Positions 12,474-47,723 are shown, counted from the stretch's first letter. The stretch: DNA of 64,000 nt from a virus (IMGVR_UViG_3300050821_018577:1-64000), one strand, 5' to 3'. Translations and numbers: made by a program. The notes: generated from the sequence alone by a model not told the origin.

Positions 12474-12503
12474 TTGCAAATCTAAGGCCCTAAGTTATAT
12501 AAT
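12474..12503 (+). promoter_or_regulatory. sigma70-type promoter with operator
   Basis: TTGCAA-18-TATAAT; CTAAG-GCC-CTAAG at 12482-12494. Confidence 0.75.
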
Positions 12504-12538
12504 TTTGCGCTGAGCCTTGCGCGAAAGACAGGAGACGT

Positions 12539-13156
12539 ATGAATCTTAAAGCAGTCGGTGACAGTGTGAGTAAAGCCCTTTTCAAGCAAGAGGACCCGGT
12601 AAAGCGGCCGGTTGCTGCGGCGCCGGTACGAACAGTACCAGCACCGGATGGGGCGTTCCCTCGTCCATCGCAGCCCGTAACTTCCAGTAAAAACGCAGCC
12701 TATTCCACACTGTTGGAAAAGACGAATTTTGACACCACCAATGCCGGCGCAGCCTTAATGAAATACTTAGAACCTCTAAAGGCTTTACCAATTGACGAGC
12801 ACGCAAAATACAAGGCAGCGGCTGCGCAAGCCGCAGCGACAGCAGGCGTGACCGTAGTGGGGATTCTAGCCACCTTCGATGGACTTAAGCGCACTCTTCA
12901 AGAGGAGACGCGCCAGTTCGATGCCGAAGCCTCCAACACAGCCAATGAGCAAGTAGGCGATAAGCGTGCGCGGCGAAACGAAATCAGTACAGAAATCGCA
13001 GCCCTCCAGCGCGAGGATGAGCAGTTGCGCAAGGATATCGACGTCGCGCAAGCAAGGATCGACACCGCCAGAAAACAGTTTCAAGACGCAGTAGAACTAC
13101 GGGGCCAAGAACTCGACGGACAGAAGGCGGCTTTAACTCGCCTTCTGCAAGGATAA
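12539..13156 (+). CDS. coiled-coil protein, first gene of ABC/OmpA cassette
   Basis: AGGAG RBS; long heptad-rich C-terminal half. Confidence 0.8.
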   Translation: MNLKAVGDSVSKALFKQEDPVKRPVAAAPVRTVPAPDGAFPRPSQPVTSSKNAAYSTLLEKTNFDTTNAGAALMKYLEPLKALPIDEHAKYKAAAAQAAATAGVTVVGILATFDGLKRTLQEETRQFDAEASNTANEQVGDKRARRNEISTEIAALQREDEQLRKDIDVAQARIDTARKQFQDAVELRGQELDGQKAALTRLLQG

Positions 13157-13161
13157 AAACG

Positions 13162-14208
13162 ATGAGCAATTCACCGATGATTCCAGCAAGTCTAAGTGAT
13201 TCAGCGCAGTGGAAAACGTTCTGGTCCAAACCAGAAGGGAAGATGGGGATCGGTCTGCTTATACTTCTGGGCATCGGAGGAATCTGGGCCTGGGGAACCG
13301 TATCAGCATTTCTGGTAGCGATGCTGGCCGATACCGTACACATGGCCATGCTCGCCGGGCTGCTGTTTGCGATGGGATGGGTAGCGTTCAGCAAACGCTC
13401 TCACATGCTATTCCGACTTCTGAGTCGCTACTTGACCGGACTGATTATCAACGTGGATCCCATCGGAATTCTCGAGGACCATCTTCTGCAAATGAAAAAA
13501 CGCCGGGAACGTCTTGGCGAGCAAATCACCAATGTCGCCGGACAGAAACGGTACCTCGAAAGCGTGATTGAACAAAACAAACAGGACGCCAGTAAGAATA
13601 TGGCTTACGCCGCGCAGGCGCGAAAGATGGCGGACACCACCGACGCGCAAAAAAAACTACAGATGGAACTCCAGGTCCGCGCGAAAGCCAACAAGGCCGG
13701 CCGCCTGCAACAATCAAACGTTGGCTACCAACAGCTGCTCAACAAAATCACGGTCGTCTATGACCTGTTAGCGAAGTGGGCCATCAATATCGATTTTTTC
13801 ATCGAAGATACCGAGGATACGGTCAAGCAGGCAAAGACTCAGTACAAGGTCACAAGCGCAGCATTCAGCGCCATCAAAACCGGTATGGCAATCATCCGCG
13901 GCAATGCGGATGAAAACGACCTATACGACCGCACCATGGAGCATCTGGCCGAGGACGCTGGTCAAAAACTTGGCGCGATTGACGATTTCCAGCGCGTCGC
14001 GCAGAACTTCATGGATACCATCGACATCCAGAATGGCGCCATTGATACAGCGGCGCTCGACCAACTCAACCAATATGAACAAAAATTGCTCACCGCTGGC
14101 GACCAGGGTACAGCATTCCTGATTCCCGCGGTGACACAACAAGCAGTTCCGGTTCCGGTCGCCACTAAGGGTTCAAAAACAGGAACCTACGGCGACCTTC
14201 TTAAGTAG
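13162..14208 (+). CDS. membrane-anchored coiled-coil protein (PspA/TelA-like architecture)
   Basis: two N-terminal TM helices then long coiled coil. Confidence 0.75.
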   Translation: MSNSPMIPASLSDSAQWKTFWSKPEGKMGIGLLILLGIGGIWAWGTVSAFLVAMLADTVHMAMLAGLLFAMGWVAFSKRSHMLFRLLSRYLTGLIINVDPIGILEDHLLQMKKRRERLGEQITNVAGQKRYLESVIEQNKQDASKNMAYAAQARKMADTTDAQKKLQMELQVRAKANKAGRLQQSNVGYQQLLNKITVVYDLLAKWAINIDFFIEDTEDTVKQAKTQYKVTSAAFSAIKTGMAIIRGNADENDLYDRTMEHLAEDAGQKLGAIDDFQRVAQNFMDTIDIQNGAIDTAALDQLNQYEQKLLTAGDQGTAFLIPAVTQQAVPVPVATKGSKTGTYGDLLK

Positions 14209-14236
14209 TTAAATTCACAAAAAGGGAGAAACAAAA

Positions 14237-16057
14237 ATGCCAGCATTGAAAACAGGGCCAAAGGTGTTACTCATTGCGCTCGCAGCAGGGTCTTTAGTTC
14301 TCGGACTCCGCACGGCCGCAGAACGTGGTTGGATCCCAACGCCGGGAATCATGAAAGCGTTGATTCCCACCAGGGTAGTGCTTCCAGACGTTAAAGACGC
14401 TCTGGTAGCCAACGTTGAACCTCTGCCGTTGCCATCGGACACCCCTGCCAAGGTGGACGCTACGCCCATTGTCGGTGAGTTTTGGGAGTGGAACGCGCAG
14501 GCCAACATGATTCTCGCTAACGGCGGACCTTTCACCACGAAGGGTTCGTTAATGGAAAAGCACGGCGTGAACCTGCGTCTTGTCCGGCAAGACGACACAA
14601 AACAAATGGCGACCGATTTGGTGACCTGCGCGACTGCCATAGCAGGCGGAGCACCGTATTGCAATGGCGCAACGTCAGCATCGGAGCAGCCCGCTGGCGC
14701 TAATTTCGTTGTCATTATGGGCGACCAATCCGGCGCATTTTTTGCCGGTGTCACTCCATTATTGAAAAAACTGAGCCCCGGGTACATCGCTAAAGTCATC
14801 GGTGCCACCGGATACAGTCGCGGCGAAGATGCGTTCATGGCTCCGCCTGAAGTAAAGAATAATCCGCAGGCAGCGCGCGGAATCCTTGTTTCCGGTTCGC
14901 TGCGCGAAGGCGATTGGAATATCGCGTTGAAGTGGGAAGGCGACAACAGTATTCCAAACAATCCCGATGTGCACACCTACGACCCTGATGCCGTCAACTG
15001 GCTCGCAGTTGACGATTATCTGAAAGCCACCGAAGCCTATAATTCCAACCAATGCGAGGATCGCAAAGTCGTCAAAGACGGGCATCCTACCGGAGAGACG
15101 AAGCGCGTCTGCGTCAATGCCATCGTGACCTGGACCCCGGGTGACGTGAATGAAGCGCACGGCCGCGGCGGCCTCGTCAAAGTGGTCAGCACCAAGCAAT
15201 ATCGCTCGCAAATGCCCGCAGTCATCATTGGCCCACTTGCGTTCTTCCAGAAGAACCGTGATGAAATCAATGGCATGCTTGCGGCGACGCTCGAGGCTGG
15301 CGACCAAATGAAAGCCTACGACAAGGCACTGCGCAAAGCGGCGGCTATCTCCGCGAAAGTCTACAACGACCAGGATGAAGCCTACTGGTACAAGTATTTC
15401 AAGGGCGTGACTGAAACCGATACGCAGGGCGTGAAGATTGAGCTCGGCGGATCGGCAGTCAACAATCTGGACGACGAGAAAATCCTTTTCGGGCTCAAGC
15501 CCGGAACTGCCGACAATTTCAGGGCGACCTACACAATATTCGGTGGCATCTGCACGCAGCAATATCCTTTACTGTTCAAGGACACTCCGATTCCAACCGC
15601 ATCCGAGATTGAAGATAAATCCTTCGTTACCGGAGCCGAAGCCGTTATGAATGGTTCTGGTTCAGAAGCAGAAACGCCAAACTACACCGCCGAGGCTAGT
15701 GGCCCGACCGTCAGCAAGCGGTCCTGGCACATCAACTTCGATACCAATAAATCATCGTTTACACCCGATGGCGAAGCCACGATGCAGGAATTGCGAGATT
15801 CCCTGGTAATTACCGGTCTCTTCGTAAAAATCGATGGCCACACCGATGACCAAGGAAGTCACATCGTGAACGAAACGCTCTCGCGCGACAGAGCGAACGC
15901 AGTCAAGAACTGGCTGCAAAAGCACGCTCCAGCCAACTTCCCGAACAATCGATTCAAAATTGCCGGCCATGGTGCGGACCAGCCTGCCGCATCAAATTCC
16001 ACGCCAGAAGGCCGTGCAGCAAACCGCAGGGTGGAGATAACGCTTGTTGGGAATTAA
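14237..16057 (+). CDS. ABC substrate-binding protein fused to C-terminal OmpA-like domain
   Basis: N-terminal anchor; SsuA/NMT1-like region (YSRGEDA, GDWNIALKW); OmpA motifs INFDTNK, IDGHTD, LSRDRANAV, NRRVEI. Confidence 0.85.
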   Translation: MPALKTGPKVLLIALAAGSLVLGLRTAAERGWIPTPGIMKALIPTRVVLPDVKDALVANVEPLPLPSDTPAKVDATPIVGEFWEWNAQANMILANGGPFTTKGSLMEKHGVNLRLVRQDDTKQMATDLVTCATAIAGGAPYCNGATSASEQPAGANFVVIMGDQSGAFFAGVTPLLKKLSPGYIAKVIGATGYSRGEDAFMAPPEVKNNPQAARGILVSGSLREGDWNIALKWEGDNSIPNNPDVHTYDPDAVNWLAVDDYLKATEAYNSNQCEDRKVVKDGHPTGETKRVCVNAIVTWTPGDVNEAHGRGGLVKVVSTKQYRSQMPAVIIGPLAFFQKNRDEINGMLAATLEAGDQMKAYDKALRKAAAISAKVYNDQDEAYWYKYFKGVTETDTQGVKIELGGSAVNNLDDEKILFGLKPGTADNFRATYTIFGGICTQQYPLLFKDTPIPTASEIEDKSFVTGAEAVMNGSGSEAETPNYTAEASGPTVSKRSWHINFDTNKSSFTPDGEATMQELRDSLVITGLFVKIDGHTDDQGSHIVNETLSRDRANAVKNWLQKHAPANFPNNRFKIAGHGADQPAASNSTPEGRAANRRVEITLVGN

Positions 16058-16856
16058 CCGCAGCTACGCGCTTGTGCTAGATGCGTTCCTGCCCAACAAA
16101 GTCCTCAGCAAGAACGCCGTCCGCTTGATGGTCGGCGTTCAGTTGGCGGTGGTCTTGCTGCTGTGGACCTATTACCAGACCGTCTTTCTGCCCAAGCCGG
16201 GAGACATTCTACGGGCCTTGAATTTCCTCTGGACTCAGGAAGGGCTGGGAATCGAATTGCTCACCAGCTTCTTCCTGAATCTCGAGGCTATTGGGATCGC
16301 AACGGTAGTCTCACTGTTGCTGGCCTATTCTTCCTTGCTGCCGTTTTTCCGGCCCATCATCACAGTCTTGAGCAAGCTGCGATTCCTGTCCATGGTGGGC
16401 CTCACGTTTTTCTTTACGCTCATGGCTGCCAATGGCCATGCTCTACGGGTCGAGCTGCTGGTATTTTCCATTTCCGTGTTCTTCGTAACCGGCATGGCCA
16501 GCGTAATTGACAGTGCACCCAAGGAAAAATTTGACTTGGCACGCACGCTCGGAATGAACGAATGGCGGACATCGCTTGAGGTTGTCGTACTCGGCGAGAG
16601 CGACCAAGCATTAGACATGCTACGTCAAAATGCCGCGATGGGCTGGATGATGCTCACCATGGTCGAAGGCCTTTCGCGCGGCGGCGGCGGCATCGGAACG
16701 CTGCTGCTTGACAATTCCAAATACTTTCACCTGGACGCGGTATTCGCCATCCAGATAACCATTTTGCTTATCGGTCTCGGCCAAGATTATGCGATTGGGG
16801 CTCTGCGCAGAATGATTTGTCCCTGGGCGGATCTAACTCTTGAGAGGAGAACTTAG
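16044..16856 (+). CDS. ABC transporter permease (start may be GTG near 16074)
   Basis: about 6 TM helices; EAA-like loop DLARTLGM; MLTMVEGLSRGGGGIG. Confidence 0.85.
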   Translation: MLGINRSYALVLDAFLPNKVLSKNAVRLMVGVQLAVVLLLWTYYQTVFLPKPGDILRALNFLWTQEGLGIELLTSFFLNLEAIGIATVVSLLLAYSSLLPFFRPIITVLSKLRFLSMVGLTFFFTLMAANGHALRVELLVFSISVFFVTGMASVIDSAPKEKFDLARTLGMNEWRTSLEVVVLGESDQALDMLRQNAAMGWMMLTMVEGLSRGGGGIGTLLLDNSKYFHLDAVFAIQITILLIGLGQDYAIGALRRMICPWADLTLERRT

Positions 16857-17006
16857 ATGGATAGCAAAACAGCAAAAGCGTTCGACAAGGCACTTCTGAA
16901 ATTTGAAGCGGAGGTTGCGAAACTGAAATTGGTCGTAGCCGACGTACGGGCAGCCATCAAGAAACACTACGTAGCAAAGCCGAAGGCGAAGAATGGGCCC
17001 AACTAA
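16857..17006 (+). CDS. 49-aa basic helical protein
   Basis: AGGAGA RBS; MDSKTAKAFDKALLKFEAEV... translated by eye, below the ORF-track cutoff. Confidence 0.55.
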   Translation: MDSKTAKAFDKALLKFEAEVAKLKLVVADVRAAIKKHYVAKPKAKNGPN

Positions 17007-17802
17007 CTGCACGCTCGGCCCTACGCTCCTGAAAATCGATAACGTCTGCCTTTCCTACGGCGACAAAGTCGTCCTCAAGAACGTGAATGCCGAGATTCGG
17101 GAAATCCTGCGCAATCAGAGCAAGGGCCAGGTTCTCGGCTTCCTGGGGCCATCAGGCGTAGGCAAAACGCAATTATTCAGAATCATCGCCGGCCTGAACA
17201 AGCCGACCTCCGGACAAGTGACACTCAATGGCGGAACACCCGTTCATCCTGGGCTGGTAGGTGTCGTCGCGCAAAATTATCTATTGTTTGAACACCGCAC
17301 CGTACTCTCTAATCTCATGCTCGCGGCACGACGGAAGAATCACACCCAAACAGAAGTCGGTGCCTACCTGGAGGAATTCAGTCTGCATGATGTTCGCCAC
17401 CATTACCCGGCACAATTATCCGGCGGCCAGCGTCAGCGGGTAGCAATTTTGCAACAGATTCTCTGCTCGTCCCACTTTTTGTTAATGGACGAGCCATTCT
17501 CCGGACTTGACCTGCTCATGCTCGAAAAGACCGCCGCGCTGATTCAAAAAGTCGCCAACATGGATGAGCTCAACACTATCGTCATCGTTTCCCATGACGT
17601 GACCGCCGTGGCCAGTGTCAGCGACCACATCTGGATGCTTGGCCGCGACCGCGATGCGGAAGGCAATATCATTCCTGGCGCCAGAATCATGGAAGTCTAC
17701 GACCTAGTAGAACGCGACCTGTGCTGGCACCCAGACATCATAACGTCGCCCCGATTTATGTCTTTTGTTGCAGAAGTCAAAGAACGCTTCCGAACGCTTT
17801 AG
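16993..17802 (+). CDS. ABC transporter ATP-binding protein
   Basis: Walker A GPSGVGKT, signature LSGGQ, Walker B LLMDEPF, H-loop VSHD. Confidence 0.92.
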   Translation: MGPTNCTLGPTLLKIDNVCLSYGDKVVLKNVNAEIREILRNQSKGQVLGFLGPSGVGKTQLFRIIAGLNKPTSGQVTLNGGTPVHPGLVGVVAQNYLLFEHRTVLSNLMLAARRKNHTQTEVGAYLEEFSLHDVRHHYPAQLSGGQRQRVAILQQILCSSHFLLMDEPFSGLDLLMLEKTAALIQKVANMDELNTIVIVSHDVTAVASVSDHIWMLGRDRDAEGNIIPGARIMEVYDLVERDLCWHPDIITSPRFMSFVAEVKERFRTL

Positions 17803-17811
17803 AAATTCTTC

Positions 17812-17840
17812 TTTACAAAGCCTAGGCCCTAAGTTATAAT
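17812..17840 (+). promoter_or_regulatory. sigma70-type promoter with operator
   Basis: TTTACA-17-TATAAT; CCTAG-GCC-CTAAG at 17821-17833; near-copy of the 12474 promoter. Confidence 0.75.
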
Positions 17841-27521: not shown

Positions 27522-28619
27522 ATGAAGCGCGCTTTCCTAGTTGCCGGGCTTGGCTGGGGTGACGAATCGAAAGGGGCAACGACTGATTTTTTGACCTGGA
27601 AGTATGGAGCTGGTCTTGTAGTTAGATATTCGGGCGGTTCCCAATGCGGCCATAATGTCGTGACTCCCGACGGCCGTCATCACACCTTCCAACAATTCGG
27701 CGCCGGCATGTTCCATCCAGGTATCCGGACGCATCTCTCGCGGTTCATGCTGATAAACCCGATGAACATGATGCGCGAGGAAGAACATTTGCGCGAAGTC
27801 GGCATCACCGATGCCTGGGAGCGGACGTCAGTGGATCCGCGCGCGTTAATCATCACGCCATTCCATCGAGAGCTGAATCGTGCGATGACGCCGGCAGGCA
27901 CGACCAGTTGCGGCCATGGAGTAGGTGTATGCCGCGAAATGCACCTGGCTTATGGCGACCGAGTTTTATTTGCCGGCGACCTGCTGGACAAAGAAAAGAC
28001 GATTACAAAATTGCAGTGGACCCAATTAAAATGCTTAGAAAAATTTGCAATCGAGTCAAGGGCGTGGCCCATACCAGAAGCCCTTAAAGACCTTCAAATG
28101 TCAGAACTCTGTTGGGACTGGTACAAAGACTGGCGCGAACTGGTTCAAATTCGCCATCTCACCGGAATGCTTGACCACGAAACCATCATCTTTGAAGGGG
28201 CCCAGGGCGTGCTGCTCGATGAAACCCACGGCGATGAAGGTTTCAACACTTGGACGGACACGACGTTCAACAATGCGAATACACTGCTCGATGAAGCCGG
28301 CTTCGATGGCCAACGCACCCGGGTTGGCGTCATCCGGACTTACTACACGCGGCACGGCGCCGGGCCGTTTCCGACCGAGGATCCGGCGTTAAACTATCCC
28401 GAACCGCACAACGAAGATTCCGGCTATCAGGGCAAGTTCCGCCGCGGCAAGTTCGATGATGCCCTGTTTCATAAGGCTCTAGACATTTGTGGTGGGATCG
28501 ATTGGCTGGCCGTGAACCATATAGACCGGTTCGATTTGAGTCCGGAGGGCTATTACAAGTGGCACAACATCTTCGGGTACGGCCCGACCTGTAAAGACCG
28601 CCAAGAGAGTTGGCGATGA
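27522..28619 (+). CDS. adenylosuccinate synthetase-like protein (PurA family)
   Basis: GLGWGDESKG, RYSGGSQCGHNV, SCGHGVG, FEGAQGVLLD, RTYYTRHGAGPFPTE. Confidence 0.88.
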   Translation: MKRAFLVAGLGWGDESKGATTDFLTWKYGAGLVVRYSGGSQCGHNVVTPDGRHHTFQQFGAGMFHPGIRTHLSRFMLINPMNMMREEEHLREVGITDAWERTSVDPRALIITPFHRELNRAMTPAGTTSCGHGVGVCREMHLAYGDRVLFAGDLLDKEKTITKLQWTQLKCLEKFAIESRAWPIPEALKDLQMSELCWDWYKDWRELVQIRHLTGMLDHETIIFEGAQGVLLDETHGDEGFNTWTDTTFNNANTLLDEAGFDGQRTRVGVIRTYYTRHGAGPFPTEDPALNYPEPHNEDSGYQGKFRRGKFDDALFHKALDICGGIDWLAVNHIDRFDLSPEGYYKWHNIFGYGPTCKDRQESWR

Positions 28620-47037: not shown

Positions 47038-47115
47038 TGGAGCGCCTGACGGGATTCGAACCCGCAACCCTTCGCCCTAGGAGACGAATGCTCTGCGCAG
47101 TTGAGCTACAGGCGC
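47038..47115 (-). tRNA. atypical tRNA (Arg-CCT-like) with 8-nt anticodon loop CUCCUAGG
   Basis: GCGCCTG/CAGGCGC acceptor, T73, encoded CCA, T-loop TTCGAAT, anticodon stem TTCGT/GCGAA, D-loop lacks GG. Confidence 0.75.
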
Positions 47116-47219: not shown

Positions 47220-47723
47220 ACTGGCTCGCCCGGTGTGACTTGAACACACATCGTCAGCTTTAGAGGCTGCTGCACTGGCCGGTTGTGCTACAGGCGAACT
47301 GAAATCTGGAGCCGCTGGCAGATTACGAGTCTGCGGCCTCTCGGTTAAAACCGAGTGCTCTTTATCGGAAGAAACTTCCGGTCGATGCTGAGCTACAGCG
47401 GCGTGGTTGTAAACTCGATAGTTGGCCAGCGCCTTGCGCTGCTCGCCGGCGATCGGGCTCGTCGCAATTGCGGTGAGCTCGTCATTGAAGTCAGGCTCGT
47501 GCCAAGAAAAATGCGGGATGTTATTGGCGCATAGCTTTGCTTCCGCGCGGCGAAGCGACGCCAAGTGCGGCAGGCCAATCAAAACCATATTGGGAATTCC
47601 TTCTTCACAACGAAGCGAGGCAACGTGGAAGGAGGCATGAGCGGTCTGAATAATTTGCGCAGGGATGGGGATGTCGGTTCGAACGAACAGGAAAACGTAG
47701 CGGTCGTCGCTTATCTATGTCAT
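47184..47723 (-). CDS. PTH2-like (peptidyl-tRNA hydrolase) protein with in-frame TAG at codon 3; frame runs into tRNAs
   Basis: ATG ACA TAG ATA...YVFLFVRTDIPIPAQIIQTAHAS...WHEPDFNDELTAIA; in frame with track ORF 47184..47588. Confidence 0.65.
47222..47297 (-). tRNA. amber suppressor tRNA (anticodon CTA)
   Basis: 76 nt cloverleaf: TCGCCTG/CGGGCGA, D-arm GCAC/GTGC with GG, loop CT-CTA-AA, T-arm GTGTG-TTCAAGT-CACAC, G73, CCA. Confidence 0.88.
47307..47402 (-). tRNA. degenerate Lys(TTT)-like tRNA with enlarged D-loop
   Basis: GCCGCTG/CAGCGGC + T + CCA; 6-nt loop TTTTAA; D-loop carries extra CGGAAG/CTTCCG hairpin; T-loop CTCGTAA. Confidence 0.55.

Follow-up and report, generated by a model that had tools for sequence, protein, structure and literature searches.

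Operons in which ABC transporter genes accompany genes for PspA-type or membrane-anchored ESCRT-III-like proteins have been described as a class by Ravi et al. (Ravi et al., 2024, mSystems; PMC11237479, section 18, Table S3; e.g. OGG56892.1), who state that such operons "may" include a tandem (inactive plus active) AAA+ ATPase. In huge phages, the main text of a more recent report counts 15 PspA genes beside complete ABC systems, and membrane stabilisation is proposed there as the role of phage PspA (Yuan & Chen, 2026, bioRxiv 10.64898/2026.10.24.761521). The operon type has hence already been noted in two papers, in both cases by computation. The cassette described here is such a module, carried by a soil phage; it is not peculiar to phages and belongs to a bacterial operon class that is present in the literature.

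The carrier is a virus record of 178,858 bp. The window, i.e. the whole stretch of 64,000 nucleotides that was analysed (IMGVR_UViG_3300050821_018577:1-64000), encodes terminase, clamp loader, ParB, RtcB and DUF5131 and is clearly of phage origin, and phage genes flank the cassette on both sides. Six tightly packed open reading frames on the plus strand (g1 to g6) are all present at 12474–17802, with spacers of 5 nt behind g1 and 28 nt behind g2, overlaps of 14 nt between g3 and g4 and between g5 and g6, and no gap (0 nt) between g4 and g5 (Table 1). The 15-nt motif AGGCCCTAAGTTATA within the upstream promoter candidate recurs exactly at 17824, and degenerate copies are found at about four further promoter-like sites of the 179-kb genome. 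Between the two promoter candidates of Table 1, the plus strand displays no further promoter-like site, and the downstream one opens the next transcription unit, thereby setting the 3' limit of the cassette. ORF coordinates and promoter-site scan thus agree with the preliminary description, which had one promoter driving six co-oriented genes and a complete ABC cassette; binding protein, permease and ATPase are all there. Since five of the six genes (all but g5) have homologues in conserved order in dozens of loci, the genes are considered real.

Table 1. Predicted features of the cassette and its borders (positions counted from the first nucleotide of the window).
Feature	Nucleotides	Strand	Residues	Remarks
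Sigma-70-like promoter candidate	12474..12503	+		TTGCAA-N18-TATAAT; includes the 15-nt phage motif AGGCCCTAAGTTATA
g1, soluble coiled-coil partner	12539..13156	+	205 aa	
g2, membrane-anchored divergent PspA/IM30 (ESCRT-III superfamily) protein	13162..14208	+	348 aa	
g2, transmembrane hairpin (two helices)	13243-13389		~aa 28-76	
g2, PspA-like region	13399-13911		~aa 80-250	DPIGIL motif at start
g3, wall-tethered binding protein	14237..16057	+	606 aa	
g3, N-terminal hydrophobic helix	14252-14323		aa 6-29	
g3, TauA/SsuA/CmpA/NrtA-fold binding domain	14450-15646		~aa 72-470	
g3, OmpA_C peptidoglycan-binding domain	15704-16051		~aa 490-605	
g4, divergent TauC/SaoP-like BPD_transp_1 permease	16044..16856	+	270 aa	TTG start uncertain; stop TAG
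g5, putative Lys/Ala-rich helical ORF	16857..17006	+	49 aa	own ribosome-binding site
g6, ABC ATPase	16993..17802	+	269 aa	
Second promoter candidate, same type	17812..17840	+		TTTACA-N17-TATAAT; just past g6

The g3 protein joins an N-terminal helix, a binding domain and an OmpA-like domain in one polypeptide, as in the operon class of Ravi et al. Pfam assigns OmpA_C (PF00691) to its C-terminus with 64.4 bits (cut-off 27.2). The sequence GHTDDQG...LSRDRA...NRRVEI contains the conserved Asp/Arg motif for contact with diaminopimelate, residues D537, R552 and N596-V599 are nearly invariant across the family, and the domain model matches TagL and OmpA with Z of about 18 and an rmsd of 1.4–1.6. Sequence searches of Pfam and PDB yield no match for the binding domain. 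In the AlphaFold model (pLDDT 86.9), every one of its nearest folds is that of a nutrient receptor, namely TauA (6ssy; Z 26.9, 291 residues aligned), CmpA (Z 25.0), NrtA (Z 23.2), SsuA (Z 22.9) and ThiY. The earlier designation as an SsuA/NMT1-like protein is therefore correct at the level of the fold, and so is the proposed fusion to a peptidoglycan-binding OmpA domain.

The g4 protein scores 17.7 bits against PF00528 (BPD_transp_1), under the cut-off of 26.4; an EAA-like loop (DLARTLG) is readable. Its nearest named relatives are SaoP (E 1.4e-6) and TauC (E 4.6e-5), both far under their own cut-offs, and the gene adjoins g3 and g6 in every related locus. The small ORF g5 begins in frame straight after the g4 stop codon, behind a good ribosome-binding site (GAGAGGAG). 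In spite of this site g5 remains putative, because no homologue is found in any related locus examined, which makes it an orphan; related phages have small ORFs at this position that are unrelated to g5. The g6 protein matches ABC_tran with 93.6 bits (Pfam cut-off 25), and Walker A (GPSGVGKT), Q-loop, signature (LSGGQRQR), Walker B (LLMDEP) and H-loop (VSHD) are all intact, as the preliminary description had read them. Its closest relatives are ATPases of sulfate, phosphonate, taurine and nitrate importers.

The g2 protein had been described as a 2-TM coiled-coil protein with PspA-like character. Alone, g2 has no match to PF04012 at E <= 0.01. When the entire phage genome is scanned in six frames with PF04012, g2 (10.7 bits, cut-off 33.9) and one true PspA are the only matches. 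Profile comparison by hhalign of 48 diverse g2-family members with a PspA alignment gives a probability of 88.3% (E 2.9e-6, 135 columns), pairing g2 aa 99-250 with PspA aa 22-162, and the register holds from the DP motif onward and across the helical hairpin; with a smaller g2 profile the probability is 72.5% (E 3.2e-5), and the alignment then also covers the helix preceding this motif. PF04012 is matched by 13/48 members at E <= 0.05 (best E 7e-8), and any other Pfam family by at most three of the 48, among the 25 of 68 families listed. The top seven Foldseek matches of g2 are Vipp1/PspA structures, with weak E values (1e-3 to 2e-2) and a moderate model (pLDDT 63). In VIA, the model scores Z 12.7 against Vipp1, a value that unrelated long-helix proteins reach as well (about 12). 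The slot between the g1-like gene and the binding-protein gene holds a canonical PspA in three loci of Acidobacteriota (L002, L003, L005), and in L065 a canonical PspA immediately follows the g1-like gene. Judged from these comparisons, g2 is a divergent, membrane-anchored relative of PspA/IM30, which is new in the present analysis; profile comparison, family-wide Pfam matches and operon position agree with the earlier assignment, and the top fold matches may point the same way. Unlike PspA, with helix H0 and PspB/C, g2 carries an N-terminal two-helix membrane anchor, it stays under the Pfam threshold, and its C-terminal third, which ends in a conserved DY.DLL tail, has no assigned structure.

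The g1 protein has a short conserved motif at its N-terminus and a coiled coil at its C-terminus, together with a Pro-rich linker and a small helical domain. A Pfam search assigns no family to it and PspA homology is not detectable, so the proposed PspA-like character does not extend to g1. Nor did the suggested likeness to TelA hold: neither g1 nor g2 matches TelA in Pfam at E <= 0.01, and TelA is absent among the 25 of 68 families listed for the 48 g2-family members and among the 25 of 84 families listed for 24 g1-family members.

The canonical PspA of this phage sits elsewhere in the genome, and with it present it is not obvious why the phage would require g2 for stabilisation.

A survey of gene neighbourhoods, as proposed in the preliminary description, revealed that the set g1-g2-g3-g4-g6 is shared by soil bacteria and large phages. 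About 45 soil metagenome loci retain this order, and some of them lie on contigs of 330–555 kb with housekeeping flanks, i.e. soil bacterial chromosomes. Other carriers of the five-gene set are IMG/VR phages and LR756500.1, a phage of 462 kb; large phages with the set have at least three different TerL types, and TerL relatedness was seen in one of the five records searched. Among 40 well-flanked loci, 34 have a g1-like gene no more than 8 kb from the gene for the binding protein, and in 34, too, the transporter trio is accompanied both by a g1-like gene and by a helical protein with a membrane anchor.

These data may suggest that the cassette acts early in infection, stabilising the membrane in a way that is coupled to the import of a solute, and that it is a mobile bacterial envelope operon which serves the phage as an accessory unit. 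We assign this reading a probability of roughly 0.55. The PspA-like nature of g2 favours such an envelope role over plain nutrient uptake. The horizontally mobile operon would be expressed early and would act in two halves. Host RNA polymerase would read the sigma-70-like phage promoter, and it is the consensus match of this promoter from which early expression is suggested. In the importer half, g4 and g6 would be the permease and ATPase of a type I ABC importer resembling the NitT/TauT family, and the g3 receptor would be held in the inner membrane by its hydrophobic helix and pinned to peptidoglycan by its OmpA-like domain. In the repair half, the two-helix hairpin of g2 would lie in the inner membrane with the PspA-like domain toward the cytoplasm, and g1 would be its soluble coiled-coil partner; g2 and g1 may assemble on the cytoplasmic membrane face, limiting proton leak and damage during phage replication. 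The wall-tethered importer may bring in a small polar solute for envelope or osmotic homeostasis, and both halves together would maintain the energised state of the infected cell up to the completion of assembly.

Alternatively, the trio may simply be an auxiliary metabolic importer for a nutrient (of the sulfonate, taurine, nitrate, bicarbonate or pyrimidine-precursor type) that boosts host metabolism for phage production, with the coiled-coil proteins as mere regulators or scaffolds. The nutrient-receptor folds closest to g3 and the importers of the same classes closest to g6 and g4 speak for this explanation, and single binding proteins, PstS among them, are known from phages. However, in 34–37 of the 40 well-flanked loci the trio is found together with PspA-type proteins or helical proteins with a membrane anchor; it is not accompanied by catabolic or assimilation genes, and the flanks vary among loci. 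A receptor pinned to peptidoglycan is also unusual for nutrient scavenging, and the g3 binding-protein gene is an accessory trait, as only 5/401 sampled genomes of Acidobacteriota have it. Plain uptake appears unlikely.

A wall and membrane complex could also guard the envelope, sensing or blocking incoming phages and so excluding competitors. Patchy distribution and movement of the module among bacteria and several phage lineages are consistent with this idea, exclusion-type functions for phage envelope proteins were raised in the preliminary description and in the report of Yuan & Chen, and the OmpA-type domain occurs in ZorB and MotB as well. There is a loose architectural likeness to Zorya, i.e. 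a peptidoglycan-anchored stator with a long cytoplasmic coiled coil. However, PADLOC returns generic OmpA and ABC domain matches only, for superinfection exclusion as well as for the toxin or bacteriocin immunity considered earlier, the cassette has no nuclease or other effector, and the flanks examined show no consistent defence-island context, which makes a defence function rather improbable.

It is more doubtful still that g6 and g4 drive assembly or disassembly of a g2/g1 polymer, as an ABC-powered ESCRT-III machine in place of a Vps4-type AAA+ ATPase. The same operon class does occur with a tandem AAA+ ATPase, and how PspA homologues without an AAA+ ATPase regulate assembly is unknown (Ravi et al., 2024; PMC11237479, section 18). 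Pfam and NCBIfam assign no AAA+ ATPase to the six cassette genes or to two ORFs on each side, the only AAA-named match being a sub-threshold AAA_21 inside g6, yet an ABC ATPase is always beside the PspA-like gene; the DY.DLL tail of g2 and the N-terminal motif of g1 could, speculatively, be docking peptides. Against this, permease and binding protein show ordinary importer architecture, including the EAA-like loop.

Finally, a misjoining of bacterial DNA into the phage contig, as close homologues on bacterial chromosomes might suggest, is hardly credible, since the cassette is bordered on either side by phage genes and by the promoter motif of the phage itself, its GC (0.536, genome 0.541) and GC3 equal those of the phage, a GC match that holds in every other carrier too and excludes contamination, the nearest bacterial copies are just 54–67% identical, and further complete phage records carry the set as well. 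The two objections anticipated in the preliminary description fall away: the locus is not host contamination, and none of the homologous cassettes is a characterised importer.

Compared with known systems, the cassette resembles NitT/TauT importers (TauABC, SsuABC, NrtABCD, CmpABCD) in the fold of the g3 receptor (Z 23–27) and in the nearest named relatives of ATPase and permease. It departs from these importers in its receptor, which exceeds TauA by about 100 residues, carries the OmpA_C fusion, lacks a Pfam match at sequence level and has no assigned ligand. As in the phages of Yuan & Chen, a PspA-type gene adjoins binding protein, permease and ATPase in a large-genome phage. However, the genome here, at 179 kb, lies below the 200-kb limit of that report, and g2, the PspA-like gene of the operon, is too divergent for Pfam; the main text of that report gives counts only and mentions neither an OmpA fusion nor a g1 partner. 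Compared with the class of Ravi et al. (PMC11237479), anchor and PspA-like domain are merged in g2 with no separate "TM+Snf7" gene, a tandem AAA+ ATPase is absent, g1 is an extra constant partner, and the carrier is a phage. With its 2-TM anchor and PspA-like domain, g2 is nevertheless a PspA/membrane-anchored ESCRT-III-like protein in the sense of these authors. The cassette shares with their class the gene for a binding-protein/OmpA fusion followed by permease and ABC ATPase, the PspA-type and membrane-anchored helical proteins within the same operon, and the proposed coupling of solute transport to membrane remodelling.

The virus record has a length of 178,858 bp, of which the window is the first 64 kb; this part encodes a large terminase, a clamp loader, ParB, a PurZ-like enzyme, RtcB and a DUF5131 protein. 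A 365-aa protein in the window matches PHROG 1211, a family of PurZ-type adenylosuccinate-synthetase-like proteins (E 8.7e-56), which hints at a possible modified purine metabolism. The preliminary description of the cassette as six co-oriented genes behind one promoter is accurate: six plus-strand open reading frames (g1 to g6) follow each other with gaps of 5 nt, 28 nt, -14 nt, 0 nt and -14 nt, and neither a plus-strand promoter-like site nor a convincing terminator was found within the cassette. The promoter-like site ahead of the genes (TTGCAA-N18-TATAAT) and a near-identical one beyond the last stop codon have the 15-mer AGGCCCTAAGTTATA in common, and about six such sites exist in the whole genome. 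They form a phage-specific promoter family with conserved spacer (a TTGACA-like element followed by a CTTAGGCCCTAAGTTATAAT-like one); exact copies of the motif occur twice, once on each side of the cassette. As a consensus host-type promoter sits in the early-gene region, this suggests that the cassette may be transcribed soon after infection. The coordinates of these and other features are listed in the table.

Features of the cassette, of the carrier phage and of related loci (window positions unless marked; L-numbers denote the loci compared)
Feature	Location	Strand	Remark
Cassette, g1 to g6	12474-17802	+	
Promoter-like site	12474-12503	+	ahead of cassette genes
Near-identical promoter-like site	17812-17840	+	beyond last cassette stop codon
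Phage promoter family members	12485, 17824, 54995; genome 65438, 163402, 172779		
g5	16854-17006	+	range includes the TAG stop codon of g4; g5 in the same frame
PHROG 1211 match	27522-28619		
tRNA-like gene	47038-47115		four-base anticodon ccta
Amber-suppressor tRNA	47222-47297		anticodon CTA
Second PspA	genome 139232-139939 (L159:1462-2169)		outside window
Acyl-carrier-protein gene	L159:2166-2423		directly 3' of second PspA
Junction small ORFs, related phages	L067:11823-12224, L068:3192-3671, L073:11941-12492, L069:13236-13454, L174:9696-9971		
OmpA-less binding-domain copies	L015:6697-7956, L029:4580-5860, L026:4701-5948, L010:6466-7875		Myxococcota
T4 gp30.3 homologue	L061:11504-11965		Armatimonadota chromosome

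PspA-type proteins are the main effectors of membrane repair in bacteria. The second gene of the cassette, g2, encodes a 348-aa protein which alone displays no Pfam match. From a conserved K.FW..PEGK motif at its N-terminus the protein continues into two hydrophobic helices and then an amphipathic one; the DPIGIL motif comes next, ahead of long helices, and the C-terminus is a DY.DLL tail. Exhaustive profile search yields a family of 1,487 representative clusters, nearly all of 320-370 aa. Among 48 diverse members, 13 match PF04012 (PspA_IM30; best E 7e-8), while every other Pfam family is matched by at most 3. Comparison of the 48 members with an alignment of bona fide PspA by hhalign gives a probability of 88% (E 2.9e-6, 135 columns; 72.5% for a smaller g2 profile), and the alignment begins at the DP motif, which likewise opens helix 1 of PspA. 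The best Foldseek matches of the g2 model (pLDDT 63, moderate) are Vipp1 and PspA; taken alone this fold evidence is weak, because long helical hairpins give equal scores against unrelated proteins. A six-frame scan of the whole phage with PF04012 returns two matches only, namely g2 (sub-threshold) and a true PspA elsewhere in the genome. Gene order gives additional support. The slot of g2 in the phage is taken, in Acidobacteriota loci of Bryobacteraceae type, by a canonical PspA that exceeds the Pfam cut-off and lies exactly between the g1-like and binding-protein genes; a canonical PspA is likewise the gene directly after the g1-like one in a Thermoanaerobaculia locus (L065). Profiles, Pfam matches within the family, fold, genome scan and operon position together lead us to the conclusion that g2 is a divergent PspA/IM30 relative with a membrane anchor.

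The true PspA of this phage, a canonical protein of 235 aa, matches PF04012 above cut-off (48.9 bits), so that the phage carries two PspA-type genes; an acyl-carrier-protein gene (PP-binding, E 2.7e-14) adjoins it. The PspA-like nature that had been proposed for both coiled-coil partners holds for g2, while the homology test of g1 against PspA was negative. g1 (205 aa) belongs to no Pfam family; behind a short motif at its N-terminus come a Pro-rich linker, then a small helical domain and finally a coiled coil.

The transporter half consists of g3, g4 and g6. The 606-aa protein g3 carries an OmpA domain at residues 501-597 (Pfam, 64.4 bits), upstream of which there is no Pfam match; PDB sequence searches with its binding domain, g1, g2 and their profiles returned nothing meaningful. 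A confident AlphaFold model from 38 homologues (pLDDT 86.9, pTM 0.84) starts with a helix (aa 6-29), from which a disordered linker leads to a binding domain of two lobes, with the OmpA domain at the C-terminal end. Comparison of the modelled binding domain with known structures (TauA, Z 26.9 over 291 residues, rmsd 3.2; CmpA, 25.0; NrtA, 23.2; SsuA, 22.9) places it firmly in the TauA/SsuA/NrtA/CmpA class, in agreement with the SsuA/NMT1-like, OmpA-fused binding protein seen before. The C-terminal domain resembles the peptidoglycan binders TagL and OmpA (Z ~18), and its motif GHTD..G...LS..RA...NRRVEI is complete and almost invariant across the family. Many Trp, Asp and Glu residues of the binding domain are invariant, which would be compatible with a small ligand of cationic or zwitterionic nature. 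g4 (270 aa) is a divergent permease with PF00528 below cut-off, weak matches to SaoP and TauC, and an EAA-like loop. The 269-aa ABC ATPase g6 (93.6 bits) has the complete motif set, as the preliminary description had stated.

By homology, g4 and g6 would form a type I importer with g3 as its receptor, fixed between the inner membrane and peptidoglycan. The PspA-like domain of g2 would lie in the cytoplasm, because basic residues precede the first helix and follow the second; together with g1 it could, like PspA, form a stabilising coat on the membrane. We favour this combination of membrane stabilisation and solute import with a probability of roughly 55%. Plain nutrient uptake, to be considered for an ATPase whose nearest relatives serve sulfate, phosphonate, taurine and nitrate importers, appears possible but rather unlikely. 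Exclusion or defence, which the earlier interpretation had named beside membrane stabilisation, is doubtful: PADLOC reported generic OmpA/MotB and ABC domain matches only, and no defence system. That interpretation is partly correct, while the underlying factual description is correct. To our knowledge, it is not yet clear how PspA-type proteins are recruited and regulated without PspB/C/F or an AAA+ partner. A speculative and improbable alternative is a self-contained, ABC-powered ESCRT-like machine for envelope repair, in which ATPase and permease would energise or gate the assembly of a polymer of membrane-anchored, ESCRT-III-like g2 with g1 in place of a Vps4-type AAA+ ATPase, and the wall-pinned g3 would report the state of periplasm or peptidoglycan. 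If this were true, large phages would carry a portable, ATP-driven membrane-repair device.

In bacteria, the trio g3-g4-g6 occurs at 42-57% identity in 65 loci of Myxococcota, Acidobacteriota and Armatimonadota genomes, inclusive of the complete Minicystis rosea chromosome. Most of these loci contain a g1-like gene, and most carry a different membrane-anchored helical protein of 285 aa (g2b), which replaces g2 in most Myxococcota and Armatimonadota loci, the one of Minicystis rosea DSM 24000 (CP016211.1, L043) among them. Homology of g2b was detected neither with g2 (probability 21%) nor with PspA, and it has no Snf7 or PspA Pfam match; the label "divergent Snf7" (Ravi et al., PMC11237479) is therefore unconfirmed for g2b, which we equate by assumption with the TM+Snf7 protein of these authors. 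Of the 40 loci that have 3 kb or more on either side, 34 combine the trio with both a g1-like gene and a helical protein anchored in the membrane (g2 type in 8, an additional PspA in 4). In some Myxococcota loci the fused gene is immediately preceded by a second copy of the binding domain that lacks the OmpA domain, and in the module on one Armatimonadota chromosome the genes for the ABC ATPase and the membrane-anchored helical protein are separated by a homologue of phage T4 gp30.3 (PF08010, E 3.5e-54).

A neighbourhood survey, as the preliminary description had proposed, finds g1-g2-g3-g4-g6, exactly the gene order of this phage apart from g5, in about 45 soil metagenome loci and in phages. 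Identities in soil are ~38% (g1), 54% (g2), 67% (g3), 65% (g4) and 67% (g6). Some of these loci lie on contigs of 330-555 kb, flanked by genes for dihydroxy-acid dehydratase, glucuronate isomerase, glycoside hydrolases and an MFS transporter; these contigs are bacterial chromosomes. The source names of the soil loci point to Acidobacteriota, specifically Candidatus Sulfotelmatobacter. Since g2 was not found in 401 sampled Acidobacteriota genomes (nor in five cassette-bearing genomes) and g3 is found in only 5 of the 401, the ~67% identical bacterial copies come from a lineage outside this sample.

The same ordered set is present in six IMG/VR contigs (43-177 kb) and in the 462-kb phage LR756500.1; a blastn search with the cassette matched none of 50,697 phage records, and a pattern scan of viral contigs with g2 alone found no relatives. 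A 152-kb record with terminal repeats is the nearest carrier, its TerL being 50% identical to that of this phage, and no TerL match was detected in the complete 177-kb carrier or the 462-kb phage, so that phages with at least three different terminases carry the module. In the g3 tree the window copy pairs with that of the 152-kb phage, and these phage copies are united with a tight cluster from soil bacteria in a clade with full support, outside of which the g2-type copies of Polyangiaceae are placed. A "viral" contig of 478,840 bp (IMGVR_UViG_3300044957_000763) holds the bacterial g2b-type version, and its binding protein groups very closely in the tree with that of the Armatimonadota MAG L061; rather than a phage, the contig may be bacterial or prophage-bearing. 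In every carrier the cassette has the GC content of the genome in which it resides (0.536 vs 0.541 in this phage, 0.476 vs 0.473 in the 152-kb phage), which indicates long residence and excludes host contamination. The set recurs in other phages, and an assembly artefact is very unlikely.

Bacterial copies are compact at the g3|g4 and g4|g6 junctions, where phage copies have unrelated small ORFs inserted and which are insertion hot spots in related phages; several of these ORFs have signal peptides, lipoprotein-like starts or transmembrane segments. The putative 49-aa ORF g5, with a good ribosome-binding site and no homologue in the related loci compared, is the version of this phage. g4 ends with TAG and g5 starts at the next codon; reading the TAG as a residue gives a permease of 320 aa whose tail is helical and rich in Lys and Ala. 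The phage encodes an amber-suppressor tRNA, adjoined by a tRNA-like gene (ARAGORN), and g2 and g6 also end with TAG. Amber read-through fusing g4 to g5 was considered and rejected, as the in-frame arrangement is expected in 1 of 3 cases by chance and has no other support.

The module is real and well preserved. That both bacteria and unrelated large phages keep it intact suggests a selectable function during infection. Being compact, with five genes in about 5.3 kb, it is a tractable test case for how phages handle the membrane energetics of their hosts, and for what the transporter half contributes. Its PspA-like gene represents a large family (about 1,500 representative clusters) overlooked by standard annotation.

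Our literature search found no experimental work on any member of this operon class, for which a link of membrane remodelling to solute transport has been suggested (Ravi et al., PMC11237479). A study on huge phages reports 189 pspA genes, 15 of which adjoin complete ABC systems, and proposes that phage PspA preserves membrane energetics during infection (Yuan & Chen, bioRxiv 10.64898/2026.10.24.761521). The cassette, in which an ABC transporter tethered to the wall is combined with a PspA relative, thus joins an operon class known from computation, and PspA beside ABC systems in huge phages is already reported; the value added by this locus is modest and, besides the overlooked family of its PspA-like gene, lies in displaying the module in a soil phage of less than 200 kb.
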